Source: a phage. From it: a stretch of DNA of 64,000 nt. The notes below the pieces were generated by a model. That model saw only the letters and a program-made list of their open reading frames with translations, was not told where the DNA came from and did no database searches. How positions within the stretch are numbered: the stretch's first letter is position 1; each line of letters starts with the position of its first letter. A program made the position numbers and the translations under genes. This document shows positions 2,563 to 63,933 of this stretch, piece after piece. The DNA is taken from NCBI GenBank assembly GCA_036930585.1, contig GCA_036930585.1_3066.1. One strand, written 5' to 3'.

Positions 2563-4090
2563 CTACTGTTATCCATTTACCATTAATCTGTACTTCATCA
2601 TTTTCATTTACGATAATTGTATCGCCATTTAGTTCGAAAGTAAACCACTCGCCATCTTCTTTTTCTTCAAACGCCTTTTCACCGAGAACTAATCCAGTGA
2701 TTGCGCAAATATCAAACAATTCTTTGTTTTTAAGCATATCAGCATATGACATACCCCAACTGTTGAGAACTTTACCGCGCAATGGATAACCACCATGAAG
2801 TTCTTTATCACGAACATCAATAAGATATCCGATAGCAGAATCACCCTCAGTCAAGAAAAGAGTAGTGTCAGCATCTTTACCGCAAAGATTCGCTTTAATG
2901 TGTTTATGAACCTTAGCTTTAGAAGCCTTTTTAGCTGCTTTAGTTTCTGCTGCCTTTTCTGCCGCCAATTTACGAGCCAAAGCAGCTTCAATAATCGGCA
3001 TTAGAATTGCTTCATTATTTAGAATAGCACGTGAAATCTTTTTAGCATCAAGTTGAATATGACTACGGATTTCACCAAATGGAGAAGTCAAACGCTCTTT
3101 AGTTTGAGAATCAAATCGCATGTTTTTCATATCACGGACAAACATAACGATAGTCAAACATTCTTTAACGCGTGCTTTAGTCACATCAATTTTGAACTTA
3201 CGTTTGATTTGTGGAATAAGGTCTTCACAAATATCATCCATAACACAGTCAATGTGATGGCCACCATTCTTAGTGTGAATGTTATTCACATAAGTTAATT
3301 GACGAAAACCATCCGGTGAACGACCAACCGCAATAGAGCAATTTTCTTGTTCTTGAACGATAGCATGTTCATCATATTGGCGTGCATATTTCTTAAAATT
3401 GCCCTGAACCTTTTTACCATTAAAGGTAAATTGAATATCAGGATAAACTACTGCAAGTGTCTGGAGACGATCTAGTGTAATGTCAAGATAAACTTGGGAC
3501 AGCTCATTAGTTTCAAATGACATAAAATCAGGAATGAAAGTAACACGAGTTCCTTTCCATTTTCCAGGAATAGTTTCCCATGATTTATTTTCCATGCCAT
3601 TTGAACAACGAACTACAATATTATTTTGACCATCACCAGTTTCACCGACAAACATCACAGAAAAAATGTTTGTCAAACTAGAACCAACACCATTCATACC
3701 ACCGGTGACACGTTCTTTATCATCACCAAAGTTACCACCTGCTTTTGGAATAGTCCAGGCAGCAACAGGACCAGGAATTTCTTCACCAGTAGGTGTTTTG
3801 ACCATCGCTTGTGGAATACCGCGACCGTTATCTTCAACTGTTACTTGATTGTTTTTAATAGTAACATTAATTTTATTTGCGAATTTAAACTTAGTACGAA
3901 TACCTTCATCTACTGAGTTATCGATAATTTCATCAATAAGCTTAACAAGACCAGGTACATACTGAACACTTTCCCATTTACCAAACAGAAAGCGCTCATG
4001 CATTTCATTAGCAGAAGAGCCAATATACATGCCGCTACGCTTTTTGATATGTTCAATATCGCTCAGAATTTTAATTTCATTCTTAATCAT
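2540..4090 (-). CDS. 39: DNA topoisomerase II large subunit gp39 (GyrB-like ATPase), 516 aa
   Basis: translation MIKNEIKILSDIEHIKKRSGMYIGSSANEMHERFLFGKW...; GHKL ATPase motifs (VEDNGRGIP); ATG at 4090 preferred over track GTG at 4093. Confidence 0.9.
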   Translation of the reverse strand: MIKNEIKILSDIEHIKKRSGMYIGSSANEMHERFLFGKWESVQYVPGLVKLIDEIIDNSVDEGIRTKFKFANKINVTIKNNQVTVEDNGRGIPQAMVKTPTGEEIPGPVAAWTIPKAGGNFGDDKERVTGGMNGVGSSLTNIFSVMFVGETGDGQNNIVVRCSNGMENKSWETIPGKWKGTRVTFIPDFMSFETNELSQVYLDITLDRLQTLAVVYPDIQFTFNGKKVQGNFKKYARQYDEHAIVQEQENCSIAVGRSPDGFRQLTYVNNIHTKNGGHHIDCVMDDICEDLIPQIKRKFKIDVTKARVKECLTIVMFVRDMKNMRFDSQTKERLTSPFGEIRSHIQLDAKKISRAILNNEAILMPIIEAALARKLAAEKAAETKAAKKASKAKVHKHIKANLCGKDADTTLFLTEGDSAIGYLIDVRDKELHGGYPLRGKVLNSWGMSYADMLKNKELFDICAITGLVLGEKAFEEKEDGEWFTFELNGDTIIVNENDEVQINGKWITVGELRKNL

Positions 4091-17573: not shown

Positions 17574-17738
17574 TTACTCTTCTTTTTCTTTAGATTCCTC
17601 TTTTTTCTTTTTAGGAATCTGTTCAGGACCTTTATTTACTACAGCGCCTGACGTTGTTCCAGTAGAGATATTTTCAGGACTACCACCTGAATCTCCAGCG
17701 ACCATATCTTCTTTGATAAATTCTTTATATGTTTTCAT
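17574..17738 (-). CDS. small hypothetical protein, 54 aa (61.1 position; not in ORF track)
   Basis: MKTYKEFIKEDMVAGDSGGSPENISTGTTSGAVVNKGPEQIPKKKKEESKEKEE. Confidence 0.5.
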   Translation of the reverse strand: MKTYKEFIKEDMVAGDSGGSPENISTGTTSGAVVNKGPEQIPKKKKEESKEKEE

Positions 17739-59308: not shown

Positions 59309-59770
59309 TCATTGAGTTTTAATTACTGCTTTAGAAGCCTTTCCTGGTAAACGACGACTGTTGATAATTGCCATCCTACATTGAAGTGACGGGTCTTTGA
59401 ACTTCGCGTTAGGTTTACAAACTGTAAATCCAAGCCAAAGATTTCCATCTGTGATTTCTAAACGTCCAGGACGGTATTCAACCCCATCAATAAAATCCTC
59501 ATCAATGTCAGGACGCGGAGGCATACTCAGGAATTCATTAACTTCTAAAACATGGTCTTTTATTTTGTGGAATAATTCAAAAACATATGTCTCATCAATC
59601 TCCCGTTGAATTGCACGATCAAGAAGATGCTGAGAATATTTTAGATGAAACGATGAGACCCCTGCTGCTTTTGATGCCTCACGAATATCATTGTTAATTT
59701 GACGAAACTCCGACTCAAAGTGACGACGAAGCTTATTTCGACGGATAAAAACTTCTGTGTTGATAGTCAT
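59309..59770 (-). CDS. regB: endoribonuclease RegB, 153 aa
   Basis: MTINTEVFIRRNKLRRHFESEFRQINNDIREASKAAGVSSFHLKYSQHLLDRAIQREIDETYVFELF... Confidence 0.9.
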   Translation of the reverse strand: MTINTEVFIRRNKLRRHFESEFRQINNDIREASKAAGVSSFHLKYSQHLLDRAIQREIDETYVFELFHKIKDHVLEVNEFLSMPPRPDIDEDFIDGVEYRPGRLEITDGNLWLGFTVCKPNAKFKDPSLQCRMAIINSRRLPGKASKAVIKTQ

Positions 59771-60374: not shown

Positions 60375-60588
60375 ATTTGACTTCCTCACCAGTACATAAA
60401 TCGTATTCAACTAAACGAATAGGTTCATGAATGCCATATCCTTGAACAGAAATTTCTGTCGTAGGATAAATTCCACTAATATCACCCATATTCCACGCTT
60501 CATTAAATTGCTGTTCGCCTGAATTACTAAACCATTCTGCGAAAGCATTTAACACATCTTTAGAACCTTCAATAATTATCTTTGCCAT
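60367..60588 (-). CDS. hypothetical protein, 73 aa
   Basis: ATG ORF. Confidence 0.5.
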   Translation of the reverse strand: MAKIIIEGSKDVLNAFAEWFSNSGEQQFNEAWNMGDISGIYPTTEISVQGYGIHEPIRLVEYDLCTGEEVKYD

Positions 60589-60949
60589 TACAAGCTCTCA
60601 GTAAAGGTACGAGCGATAACGTCGCGCTGCTGTTCCGGAGTCAGAGAGTTAAAGCGAACTGCATAACCGGATACACGGATGGTCAGCTGCGGATATTTTT
60701 CCGGATGCTTAACTGCATCTTCCAGAGTTTCACGACGCAGAACGTTAACGTTCAGGTGTTGACCACCTTCAATTTTAACTGTAGGCTGTGGTTCAATTTC
60801 AATTTCACGGGCATGCAAACCGTAGAAAATTTCTGGGTCTACAAAAGAGTCCTCTTTAAAGGTTTAGAAACAATAATTCGTGCTTGAATACCATCTTCAA
60901 AATAAATAGTACCTTTATGTGTGCCTTCAAGAATTTGATATGCTTTCAT
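60588..60949 (-). pseudogene. grcA/yfiD-like autonomous glycyl-radical cofactor gene (T4 Y06I-type), interrupted by a 1-nt frameshift in a homopolymer run
   Basis: frame a [36 protein letters not shown]-stop; shifted frame [90 protein letters not shown] (glycyl radical motif RVSGYAV). Confidence 0.75.
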
Positions 60950-60955
60950 ATAACC

Positions 60956-61285
60956 TCAATTAGAAAATAAATTTATCCAAGATTGTTCTTTAATTAAAAA
61001 TGGCTCAGAATCATATGCCATTAAACTCTGTGTGATTAGTCCTTTAAAAGGCCCATCAATAAATTCCATGGTAAAATATGGAATTTTATTCATTAGCCGT
61101 GCATTAGGAGCAGTACATAAAACTCTGCATCCTTTGAATACACCTTTTTGTAATTTGTATTGCTTGGGATAAAATTCGCTCAAAATGTTATTATTTGCTA
61201 AAATTTCAAAATGATTCACCAATTTATTTTTAATAGTTTTTGGCGAAAAATAAAGATATTCGAAAAGCTGTGTGTCTGTCATCAT
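60956..61285 (-). CDS. hypothetical protein, 109 aa
   Basis: ATG ORF. Confidence 0.5.
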   Translation of the reverse strand: MMTDTQLFEYLYFSPKTIKNKLVNHFEILANNNILSEFYPKQYKLQKGVFKGCRVLCTAPNARLMNKIPYFTMEFIDGPFKGLITQSLMAYDSEPFLIKEQSWINLFSN

Positions 61286-61824
61286 TGCATTCCAATCACA
61301 AAAAATTGAGGACGAACTGTTTCACCTGTTTCAGCATTATAGCTTCGACAACAGTGCTGCACAGTTTCAATATGAATATCGTAAATTTTATCCATATCAG
61401 GAGATTTAACAGGCTCATCAATTATATACAAAATTCGTGAAAGCGATAAACCTCTGAACTTGCTACCTCTATTACCAATAAAACTGCGCACAGAATCAGT
61501 AAATAAACGAAAACGTATATCATCATTAGAATAACGCGAAAATTCCTTTTTAATGTTATTTGCAGAAATTTTAGCGTAAGCTGAAGTATTAGATAGAACA
61601 ATAACTGTTCCGCCATCATACAGCCAATTAGCAGCAAAGTTAGTCACAGCAAGTGATTTACCGGATTGACGTCCACCATCTATACGAAGTGTGCAGTACT
61701 GTTTAAGTACGTCTTCAAATGGTGGGACATAACCGTTCTTACAAATTTCTTCTACTCTAGCATCAGAATGGTGTGTAAAAGCATTCATCAGGGATAGATA
61801 AGGTCCAGTTAAAAATGTTCTCAT
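61282..61824 (-). CDS. P-loop NTPase, 180 aa
   Basis: Walker A GGRQSGKS, Walker B-like ILYIIDEP. Confidence 0.55.
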   Translation of the reverse strand: MRTFLTGPYLSLMNAFTHHSDARVEEICKNGYVPPFEDVLKQYCTLRIDGGRQSGKSLAVTNFAANWLYDGGTVIVLSNTSAYAKISANNIKKEFSRYSNDDIRFRLFTDSVRSFIGNRGSKFRGLSLSRILYIIDEPVKSPDMDKIYDIHIETVQHCCRSYNAETGETVRPQFFVIGMQ

Positions 61825-61982
61825 TTAGTTTCTCTTTTAGGTTGGGCCATTCCGTGGCACATGAATTGTCCATTTCTGTATTTACCCATTACCGCACTTG
61901 GGCACGACCTTATTACAGGTTGGCGGGAATCCCTCATAGAATCATGAGGTCCAGGTTGTTCCCATTTTATTTGAATGTAAAT

Positions 61983-62000
61983 AGGCCTAAGTATAGGCCT
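61983..62000 (-). terminator. stem-loop formed by two palindromic AGGCCT sites downstream of ipIII
   Basis: aggcctaagtataggcct. Confidence 0.4.
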
Positions 62001-62002
62001 TA

Positions 62003-62581
62003 TTAATTACCGCGGGCCGCATTAGCGACGGCGTAAGCGTACTGAACATTAGCGTCTTTAAACGTACCTTTAGAGGTATCTATTTCTGCCTTAAAGCCAC
62101 CTTTAGCCATAACATCGGCAAATTCTTTACGGAAAGCCATTGCATCAAGACCTTTCCATGATGATTTATGCTTGGCAAATTCAAGACCAGCGTAGTTGAC
62201 AGCTTTAGCTAATTTATTATCAATAACCCATTTACCGGCTTTAGGCACAAACTTCGGGCCTTTTTGTTTAGAGAACAGTTTTAAATTCCAGCGACGAAGA
62301 TCACTGTCGGCTTTAACAAAAGCTGCATCTAAGTTACTAGCAACAACATCTTCAATATGAGCAAATTTGAGTCCGTCAACTTCAATATTTAGATCGTTAC
62401 GCCAGCGAAGTCCTTCCCAAGCAAAGGCTTTAAAATCAGAAGCCTTTGTAGCTAAGTACCGTTCAATAGGAGCAGTTTTAGGGTCAAAGCCGTTTCCGCC
62501 ACGATAAGTCCACTCGTCCTTATTAATGCCTTGAGCTTTTCCTGCAAAGGCCTCGGCGATAAATTCTTTATACGTTTTCAT
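62003..62581 (-). CDS. ipIII: internal protein III (IPIII) with N-terminal capsid-targeting sequence, 192 aa
   Basis: MKTYKEFIAEAFAGKAQGINKDEWTYRGGNGFDPK... Confidence 0.8.
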   Translation of the reverse strand: MKTYKEFIAEAFAGKAQGINKDEWTYRGGNGFDPKTAPIERYLATKASDFKAFAWEGLRWRNDLNIEVDGLKFAHIEDVVASNLDAAFVKADSDLRRWNLKLFSKQKGPKFVPKAGKWVIDNKLAKAVNYAGLEFAKHKSSWKGLDAMAFRKEFADVMAKGGFKAEIDTSKGTFKDANVQYAYAVANAARGN

Positions 62582-62670
62582 TTTTGTTTCCTTTAAATAT
62601 TTTAATTGGTAATTGTCTATTCAAGTAATTGTGAATATACTATCACAATTCTAGGAGAAAGTAAATAACT

Positions 62671-63639
<969 letters not shown>

Positions 63640-63643
<4 letters not shown>

Positions 63644-63933
63644 TTTAATTTCCTGCAATCACTCACAAACTCTTTCATTGATTCATTTTCAATATAAGAC
63701 ACGTAGTTGTTATATTCTTTTAATTGTATTTTGTAATCCTTTTTTCTTTGCCAATTTATTTTAAAATTATCATAATGAAAATATAACATAATACCAAAGA
63801 ATGAAAATAATGAAATAATTTTAGTATAGTGAAGTTCACTCCAAACTTCTATTATATCTACTGTGCCGTCGATGTTTAAAATAAGACAGTCAATTAACAA
63901 TCCAAAAAGACTACCCGCAAGAGCTGCAGCCAA
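63640..63933 (-). CDS. hypothetical membrane protein, up to 97 aa; start uncertain (TTG only)
   Basis: in-frame stop at 63958-63960 limits N-terminus; no ATG near 5' end. Confidence 0.4.

Follow-up and report, generated by a model that had tools for sequence, protein, structure and literature searches.

A conserved structured RNA element upstream of vs.8 in T4-like phages, with copies in other phage groups

In phage T4, the genes around the internal-protein locus are arranged in the order vs.8-denV-ipII-ipIII-e. The window analyzed here, one stretch of 64,000 nucleotides (nt) of phage DNA (GenBank assembly GCA_036930585.1, contig GCA_036930585.1_3066.1), has the order vs.8-gap-ipIII-e; between ipIII and vs.8, it contains 178 nt (61825–62002) in the place of denV and ipII. 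What is this gap? A preliminary description of the window, made from its letters alone, noted a segment without a credible gene and with a GC content above that of its surroundings, and suggested that it could be a remnant of deleted genes or a small structured RNA. Here, we report that the minus strand of the gap carries one copy of a structured RNA element (61872–61968), whose sequence and fold are conserved in T4-like phages, T4 included, and far beyond them.

Conservation and fold of the element

The composition of the gap is as the preliminary description had it. Its GC content is 42.7%, and that of the 61840–61960 core is 48.8%; in 178-base-pair (bp) segments of the window, the mean is 34.3% (standard deviation 4.2%), and only 3.3% of such segments reach the value of the gap. 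The only open reading frames (ORFs) in the gap encode 38 residues (61821–61937, minus strand) and 63 residues (61815–62006, plus strand); neither matches any protein family in Pfam or PHROG.

The 178-nt gap sequence has matches in 1029 phage records. The same sequence precedes vs.8 in KarlGJung and T4, with denV upstream, in SH7, with an ip4-like gene upstream, and in moha, with ipIII upstream. In five T4-like phages, the window phage included, about 125 nt are almost invariant, whereas the coding regions differ by about 7%. In T4, the counterpart is the stretch from denV to the internal ATG of vs.8, with which the gap can be aligned base by base. Seven T4-like genera have an unannotated gap of 140–200 bp, always at the position upstream of vs.8. 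Throughout the T4-like genera examined, 45–110 nt separate the element from the start of the gene that follows it; this gene is vs.8, except in Klebsiella-phage lineages, where one 101-residue ORF intervenes. Alignment with ordinary intergenic sequence of relatives, which the preliminary description had set against its idea of a gene-replacement site, was thus found in T4 and 1029 phage records. As the core is present beside intact denV in T4 and many others, it is not a deletion leftover; in relatives, the same core stands beside denV, ipIII or ip4. The remnant half of the earlier proposal has to be given up, whereas the structured-RNA half is supported by covariation.

We used two covariance models. 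Model R1 was built from one MAFFT alignment of 14 T4-like sequences of other genera; it matches 61872–61968 with 59 bits (E = 1.8e-14), which is its sole match in the window, and it has one match in T4. Model R2 was aligned to 49 sequences from all groups; its score at 61872–61968 is 85 bits (E = 1.4e-19). The fold was derived by hand first and tested afterwards. From 5′ to 3′, it starts with an A-rich lead, followed by helix P1 (5 bp), the pseudoknot junction strand, one optional inner hairpin or branched domain, P1′ and helix P2. After P2, there is one unpaired nucleotide, hairpin H1 (ACCU-GUAANA-AGGU), a 2–3 nt junction (commonly CNN) and hairpin H2 (GC-NNNAGN-GC or one 3-bp variant), then GGUAA(N)(N), P2′, a linker and the pseudoknot 3′ strand. 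P2, H1 and H2 form the three-way junction core. The parts of the window copy, all on the minus strand, are as follows.

61872–61968: conserved structured RNA element, full covariance-model match
61959–61963: P1 5′ strand GGGAA, pairs with 61925–61929; 5 of 5 pairs covary in the 49 sequences
61952–61954: pseudoknot 5′ strand CUG, in the junction past P1, pairs with 61876–61878
61932–61949: optional inner hairpin CCUCAU-GAUUCU-AUGAGG, enclosed by P1
61925–61929: P1 3′ strand UUCCC
61922–61924: P2 5′ strand GCC, pairs with 61884–61886; both modelled pairs covary
61907–61920: H1 hairpin ACCU-GUAAUA-AGGU, GNRA-like loop
61894–61903: H2 hairpin GC-CCAAGU-GC
61887–61893: junction strand GGUAAUG; GGUAA is invariant in all members found
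61884–61886: P2 3′ strand GGU
61876–61878: pseudoknot 3′ strand CAG
61844–61873: 3′ extension specific to T4-like phages, AUGGAC...AUGUGCCACGGAAUGGCCC, with small invariant hairpin GCCA-CGGAA-UGGC

In the set of 14 T4-like sequences, 86.6% of the alignment cells are paired, compared to 27–41% with slid partners. In eight pairs, both partners change, and four of these eight belong to the pseudoknot; at pair 17/113 of this alignment, for instance, C-G occurs in 6 sequences, A-U in 4, U-A in 3 and G-C in 1. In the set of 49 sequences, the values are 96.1% and 20–44%, respectively, and the covariation score is 0.59, compared to at most 0.13. Nine of the 13 pairs change on both sides here: five in P1, two in P2, the outer pair of H1 and one in H2. 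P1 is GGGAA/UUCCC in the window; other versions are GGGAG/CUCCC, AAAGG/CCUUU, AAAGC/GCUUU, GAAUG/CAUUC, GAGUG/CACUC, GUGUA/UACAC, GGGG/CCCC, GAGGG/CCCUC and GUAGG/UCUAC. H1 is 100% paired in the 49 sequences; for its outer pair, 43 distinct sequences have A-U and 2 have G-C, with no mixed combination. The second pair of H2 is C-G in 38, U-A in 9 and G-C in 2 sequences, and H2 as a whole occurs as GC/GC, GU/AC, GG/CC, GUC/GAC, GCC/GGC and GCG/CGC. The pseudoknot helix is 3–6 bp in length and covarying in other T4-like genera; at the position of the inner hairpin, other lineages have either one larger branched domain or nothing. The G-U pairs show the gene strand to be the transcribed one. The H1 loop and the GGUAA junction, both of them GNRA-like, together with the invariant junction point to a putative specific tertiary fold and to a defined partner for it.

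In T4-like phages, the element is followed by about 30 nt (AUGGAC...AUGUGCCANGGAAUGGCCC) that separate it from the ribosome-binding site of vs.8. Conservation of this 3′ extension across T4-like genera is at the level of sequence; it shows no covariation, and we dropped the idea of a structured extension on that account. One long-range stem, UAUUUAC (upstream) with GUAAAUA (downstream), was also dropped; it is not conserved in SH7.

These results bear on the annotation of T4 itself. In NC_000866, vs.8 is annotated with 219 residues, and its first 39 codons overlie the RNA element (3285–3413 of locus L004, about 64784–64912 of NC_000866; L numbers are our labels for loci). The element itself corresponds to T4 64847–64943. 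The 39-codon extension, which covers the same DNA as the element, is absent from vs.8 of the relatives: more than 1000 of them start the gene at the internal ATG, giving 177–180 residues. In T4, the extension is in frame only through one 7-bp insertion, TTATAGAGCTTATAGAG, just before the internal ATG; at this spot, other phages have indels of 2 or 9 nt, and their annotated protein has 179–180 residues. The true start of T4 vs.8 is therefore probably the internal ATG, which gives 180 residues. Other GenBank records have hypothetical coding sequences over the element, on either strand, as in Klebsiella phage Roth01 (L006 1226–1384), and in some records vs.8 is labelled 'terminase large subunit', 'endoribonuclease' or 'TraG-like'. 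These coding sequences and these labels are annotation artefacts. Recognition of the element corrects the T4 vs.8 annotation and the spurious ORF calls over the gap in other records.

Copies beyond the T4-like phages

One 43-nt core of the element also matches rV5-like phages. In one of them, Murica, the core is located within an unannotated 335-bp gap adjoining the tRNA cluster; its flanking hairpins differ in sequence, with the pairing kept. Scanning of public collections with CCTGTAANAAGGNCNNGCNNNAGNGCGGTAA gave 39 viral and 27 metagenomic loci, and one relaxed pattern combined with covariance-model filtering added about 20 further divergent members, one of them on a 359-kb contig. The carriers comprise T4-like phages, two rV5-like groups, Kagunavirus relatives, siphophages of about 46–70 kb related to T1-like Klebsiella, Shigella and E. 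coli phages, and many uncultured contigs. The siphophage groups are patchy; BUCT541 and Golestan are without the element. In bacteria, the core was found in 0 of 185,579 species genomes (one per species) and in no E. coli genome, so there is no evident host RNA of which the element would be a copy.

At most non-T4 loci, the element shares its strand with tRNA genes that are no more than a few hundred nt away. It is flanked by tRNAs on both sides in L058, L111 and L116; in L121, it immediately follows tRNA-Ser, and in L076 and L080 a tRNA is found just upstream of it. In rV5-like L038, one near-consensus promoter (TTGACA-17-TATACT with TG) is present about 90 nt upstream of the element and the next about 60 nt downstream of it, with no ORF between the two. 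In Kagunavirus-like contigs, the endolysin gene is followed by the element and then by promoter-like sites before the next gene; one GC-rich hairpin with a T-run after the element was read there by eye, but was not called by the automated scan. In T1-like contigs, a basal stem that occurs repeatedly, GUUGUGAC...GUCACAAC, encloses the element; a second helix extends this stem. No homologue of vs.8 or vs.7 was found near the non-T4 copies, and there is no recurrent protein partner; between groups, only terminase and one other syntenic protein are shared. Outside T4-like phages, the element is autonomous, being placed within tRNA gene clusters or next to them, and its sequence and fold are conserved far beyond T4-like phages.

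We also noticed several features of the individual copies. In T1-like L015, L021, L035 and L056, successive units upstream of tRNA genes are bracketed by the same stem, AGTGCTCTTTCCGTTGTG ... CACAACACACAACAGGTAAGAGCAT. The same basal stem around neighbouring units suggests excision by processing, and suggests that these units are an array of excised small RNAs, the element being one of them. Tandem copies are present in L028 (5082–5308) and L104 (8963–9190); the second copy is more divergent, with H2 being GUC-CGC-GAC or GCC-CGC-GGC. L102 has two core matches. In rV5-like phages, a second motif, CCCTTAGAGGGCTTGATAGTGC, flanks the element on both sides (L038 at about 55–80 and about 185–205; L005 at about 2600–2640).

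We compared the element with known RNAs. No family in Rfam 15 matched any of four versions of the element under permissive thresholds, and the Murica, Dhakavirus, class-T and Kagunavirus versions gave no match; the best scores over the element are at chance level (at most 21 bits, E at least 2) and confined to the hairpin region. ARAGORN found no tRNA gene at 61000–62700, and the Rfam tRNA model misses the element in every locus, though all flanking tRNAs were detected. Two kinds of mimicry were tried and dropped. A tRNA D-arm or tRNA-Tyr anticodon-loop mimic was dropped because GCAA alternates with GUAA in the H1 loop, which points to a GNRA-like loop rather than to an anticodon; a mimic of the 16S 530 loop was given up with the shared GCGGUAAU octamer being at about chance level.

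Literature searches by gene names, topic and literal sequence found no description of the element in searchable papers. GOLLD and ROOL are ornate structured RNAs of 500–800 nt, represented in Rfam, often carried by phages and often adjoining tRNA genes; compared to them, the element is much smaller (about 85–120 nt) and has no Rfam match. In the review by Uzan and Miller (2010), RNAs C and D, whose roles are given as unknown, are the only orphan small RNAs listed for T4, and no riboswitch or trans-acting RNA had by then been characterized in this phage (PMC3014915). Like the element, RNAs C and D (species 1 and 2 RNAs) are small phage RNAs, co-located and co-transcribed with tRNA genes. Different from them, the T4 element is about 6 kb away, between denV and vs.8, and there is no relationship in sequence or structure: R1 and R2 gave no match in T4 69500–73500, which covers the tRNA genes, rnaC and rnaD, and the rnaC and rnaD sequences are without the core motif. 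One 2023 catalogue lists 8495 unnamed candidate viral RNAs from IMG/VR (PMC10690425), which may include the motif. Taken together, we regard the element as a new family of a known kind, the small structured phage RNAs that accompany tRNA clusters. The genome of T4 has been studied as intensively as few others, and in it the element is an approximately 100-nt candidate for a new phage RNA function. Its fold, pseudoknotted and supported by covariation, is shared with rV5-like, T1-like, Kagunavirus-like and jumbo phages.

Possible functions of the RNA

We consider it probable that the minus strand at 61872–61968 is one copy of a conserved, compactly folded non-coding RNA, most likely trans-acting. 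The RNA would be transcribed in the same direction as ipIII and vs.8, be cut out of, or stabilized within, a polycistronic transcript, and then act in trans. The invariant junction and the loops may be bound by a protein or a small ligand; the target would probably be tRNA- or translation-related, or a host defence factor. In T4-like phages, the RNA would have been fixed just upstream of vs.8, and the extra conserved 3′ segment may affect vs.8 translation. Judged from sequence, the pattern of contexts seems to fit an autonomous, probably stable trans RNA better than a leader of one gene. More tentatively, we propose an undescribed and horizontally mobile phage RNA family, present in T4 too, with the three-way-junction core being a specific binding site or a catalytic centre. 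If true, the RNA could be, for example, a decoy against a host factor or defence nuclease aimed at tRNA or translation, or a new class of ligand-binding RNA; this would explain its gain and retention by unrelated virulent enterobacterial phages.

Several points count against this proposal. Folded as a single sequence, the RNA does not exceed shuffled sequences in stability (z = -0.72), and in the minimum-energy fold of the window copy, P2 and H2 give way to a pairing of GCCC with GGGU. RNAalifold also pairs the invariant core nucleotides differently, which is contradicted only by the GG/CC variants of H2 (L107 and L117). The cross-group alignments were fitted to the model and hence favour the structure. 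The pseudoknot of the window copy is just 3 bp (CUG/CAG), and the self-versus-cross test of the pseudoknot across groups is weak, 3.8 versus 3.0 pairs. The transcription, boundaries and stability of the RNA are all inferred. Finally, the constant place before one gene in T4-like phages also fits a cis-regulatory role.

Such a role, in which the element is a cis-acting vs.8 leader, either a riboswitch or a protein-binding translational operator whose aptamer and 3′ extension control access to the ribosome-binding site, is in our view unlikely, yet it accounts for several features. In every T4-like genus examined, the element precedes the next gene, mostly vs.8, by 45–110 nt; the tandem copies in L028 and L104 resemble those of some riboswitches, the conserved junction nucleotides between variable stems look like an aptamer, and UUCC at the P1/P2 boundary is a possible pairing partner of the invariant GGAA in the 3′ extension. 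However, the 3′ extension shows no covariation, and in Klebsiella phage Roth01 the element is followed by a different gene. Outside T4-like phages, no consistent downstream ORF was found: the element stands between tRNA genes or before promoters, its copies share no downstream gene, and vs.8 homologues were not found near them. An aptamer in the leaders of functionally related genes combined with an expression platform, the arrangement of riboswitches, was not observed. As the 3′ extension is conserved before the ribosome-binding site of vs.8, a cis effect on vs.8 may still exist within the T4-like lineage.

HDV-like (hepatitis delta virus-like) 'theta' ribozymes occur next to phage tRNAs, and the element has the same strand order as HDV-like ribozymes: P1, pseudoknot, hairpin, P1′, branched domain and pseudoknot′, a nested double pseudoknot. 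In some contigs, it is located directly at tRNA 3′ ends. It might accordingly be a self-cleaving or processing ribozyme that separates the upstream mRNA from the downstream tRNA or mRNA. We regard this as improbable, since the conserved nucleotides are in a different domain: the best-conserved part of the element is equivalent to P4, which is dispensable in HDV ribozymes, whereas the P3/L3 equivalent is dispensable and absent in several lineages, and the J4/2 equivalent is not conserved. In the T1-like group, the linker expected to hold the catalytic C is only 1–2 nt, and among the ribozyme families of Rfam, the HDV models included, none gave a match with E up to 10.

A denV/ipII remnant is a very improbable reading of the element, and so is a feature of the DNA alone, for instance a PeSL-type (stem-loop/promoter) recombination cassette. 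The locus is a known shuffling hot spot (PMC4122927), the 5′ border of the gap has a stem-loop and TTTACA, and TATTTACATT is common to the 3′ end of KarlGJung denV and the sequence upstream of T4 ipII. The core itself, besides standing next to intact denV in many phages, has no similarity to DenV or IPII in any frame and contains no promoter hexamers; the compensatory changes and G-U pairs indicate selection on the RNA strand, not on duplex DNA.

Protein coding, either of the 38-residue peptide (61821–61937) or of the N-terminal Vs.8 extension annotated in T4, is hardly credible. In 33 of the 62 distinct contexts, an ORF in one frame does begin 18 nt ahead of the core; in the window, its stop overlaps the vs.8 ATG (ATGA), and in T4 and ZX14 it is in frame with vs.8. 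In the other 29 contexts, however, a start codon is missing from the stretch that separates the core from the nearest in-frame stop upstream, and in five class-T contexts a UAA stop directly before the core was created by a change that is compensated in P2 (ACC/GGU to ACU/AGU). The ORF ends are scattered from 42 to more than 600 nt past the core, and the T4 fusion needs its 7-bp insertion at a spot where other phages have indels of lengths not divisible by three. Invariance is as high at third codon positions as at the others (7/10 versus 8/11 and 8/10), and the gap ORFs lack Pfam and PHROG matches.

The ipIII-side border and the neighbouring genes

All genes of the 58.4–64 kb region are on the minus strand, in the same order as in T4. 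The features around the element, likewise on the minus strand, are listed below.

63203–63658: nudE
62671–63165: e
62003–62581: ipIII, internal head protein III, upstream neighbour of the gap; stop codon at 62003–62005
61983–62000: hairpin AGGCCUA-UACU-UAGGCCU, 7-bp stem, directly past the ipIII stop, terminator-like
61976–61981: TTTACA, -35-like hexamer of the T4/PST PeSL type, read from sequence
61825–62002: gap between ipIII and vs.8, 178 nt
61282–61824: vs.8 homologue, 180-residue P-loop NTPase
60956–61285: vs.7 homologue, 109 residues

The ipIII product is 92.7% identical to T4 IPIII over 192 residues and belongs to PHROG 5341, internal virion protein (E = 8e-118). The 180-residue protein contains GGRQSGKS (Walker A) and ILYIIDE (Walker B-like); it is 87% identical to residues 38–219 of T4 Vs.8 and matches PHROG 1488 (E = 1e-78). 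Its similarity to terminase ATPases is weak, and one PDB sequence search with Vs.8 gave marginal matches only, to a DNA translocase coupling protein (E at least 0.14). The 109-residue protein is 99% identical to T4 Vs.7 (PHROG 2049). The preliminary description had viewed these two genes as replacements of denV and ipII. Instead, they are the vs.8 and vs.7 of T4, whose place in that phage is just beyond denV. It was right that denV and ipII are missing: in tblastn searches of the window, the best match of T4 DenV had E = 3.8, and T4 IPII matched only the N-terminal leader that it has in common with ipIII. The AGGCCT hairpin it had pointed out is present as well, at the ipIII side of the gap.

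In the terminator scan, this hairpin was called terminator-like; its tail, AUUUACAUUC, is U-poor. Since the scan gave two terminator-like sites, compared to 1.2 ± 1.1 expected by chance, the hairpin alone is not significant. The hairpin can also be compared with the PeSL cassettes, which sit at gene-exchange points of the hyperplastic regions of T4-like phages, the internal-protein locus included (PMC2839356, PMC4122927). In the T4/PST type, a stem-loop is next to a promoter, TTTACW-N17-TAYWAT (PMC4122927). Window 61976–62000 fits the stem-loop and -35 halves of such cassettes: the 7-bp stem-loop at 61983–62000 corresponds to the PeSL stem-loop, and TTTACA adjoins it. The complete TTTACW-N17-TAYWAT promoter is not present. 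No -10 hexamer was found 16–18 nt past TTTACA, CAACCT being at 17 nt, and the promoter scan called no site on the minus strand at 61976–61981. The 61983–62000 hairpin is probably the stem-loop half of a degraded PeSL cassette; the RNA core itself is without any PeSL feature. In phage moha (L002), the ipIII-proximal hairpin is also present, with its loop inverted, AGGCCTATACTTAGGCCT in one and AGGCCTAAGTATAGGCCT in the other; this looks like an inversion across the inverted repeat.

Beside the hairpin and TTTACA stands TATTTACATT, which is also found upstream of T4 ipII and at the 3′ end of KarlGJung denV. About 20 nt or less at the ipIII-side junction, TATTTACATTCAAATAA, could be debris, as they resemble the 3′ end of KarlGJung denV and the sequence upstream of T4 ipII. 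In moha, denV is on the opposite side of ipIII. The internal-protein locus is described as a shuffling hot spot, with exchanges tied to PeSL stem-loop/promoter cassettes, in PMC4122927, which cites Repoila 1994 for it. Owing to this documented hot spot, the PeSL-like border and the recurring TATTTACATT, the absence of denV and ipII is ordinary variation, that is, cassette shuffling of the internal-protein locus, and is unrelated to the RNA.

Further downstream, the order regB...vs.6-vs.7-vs.8 is the same as in T4, with regB at 59309–59770. In this region, the vs.6 gene (GrcA-like, autonomous glycyl radical cofactor; 60588–60949, minus strand) is split into ORFs of 36 and 76 residues; T4 Vs.6 residues 1–32 and 30–120 match different frames (60949–60854 and 60863–60591, respectively), and the split gene is either a frameshifted pseudogene or a sequencing error. 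Elsewhere in the window, one 54-residue ORF (17574–17738, minus strand) is located just upstream of the gene 61 primase. It starts with MKTYKEFI, which is the N-terminal leader of ipIII, of the capsid-targeting type, and continues with a low-complexity acidic/lysine tail.

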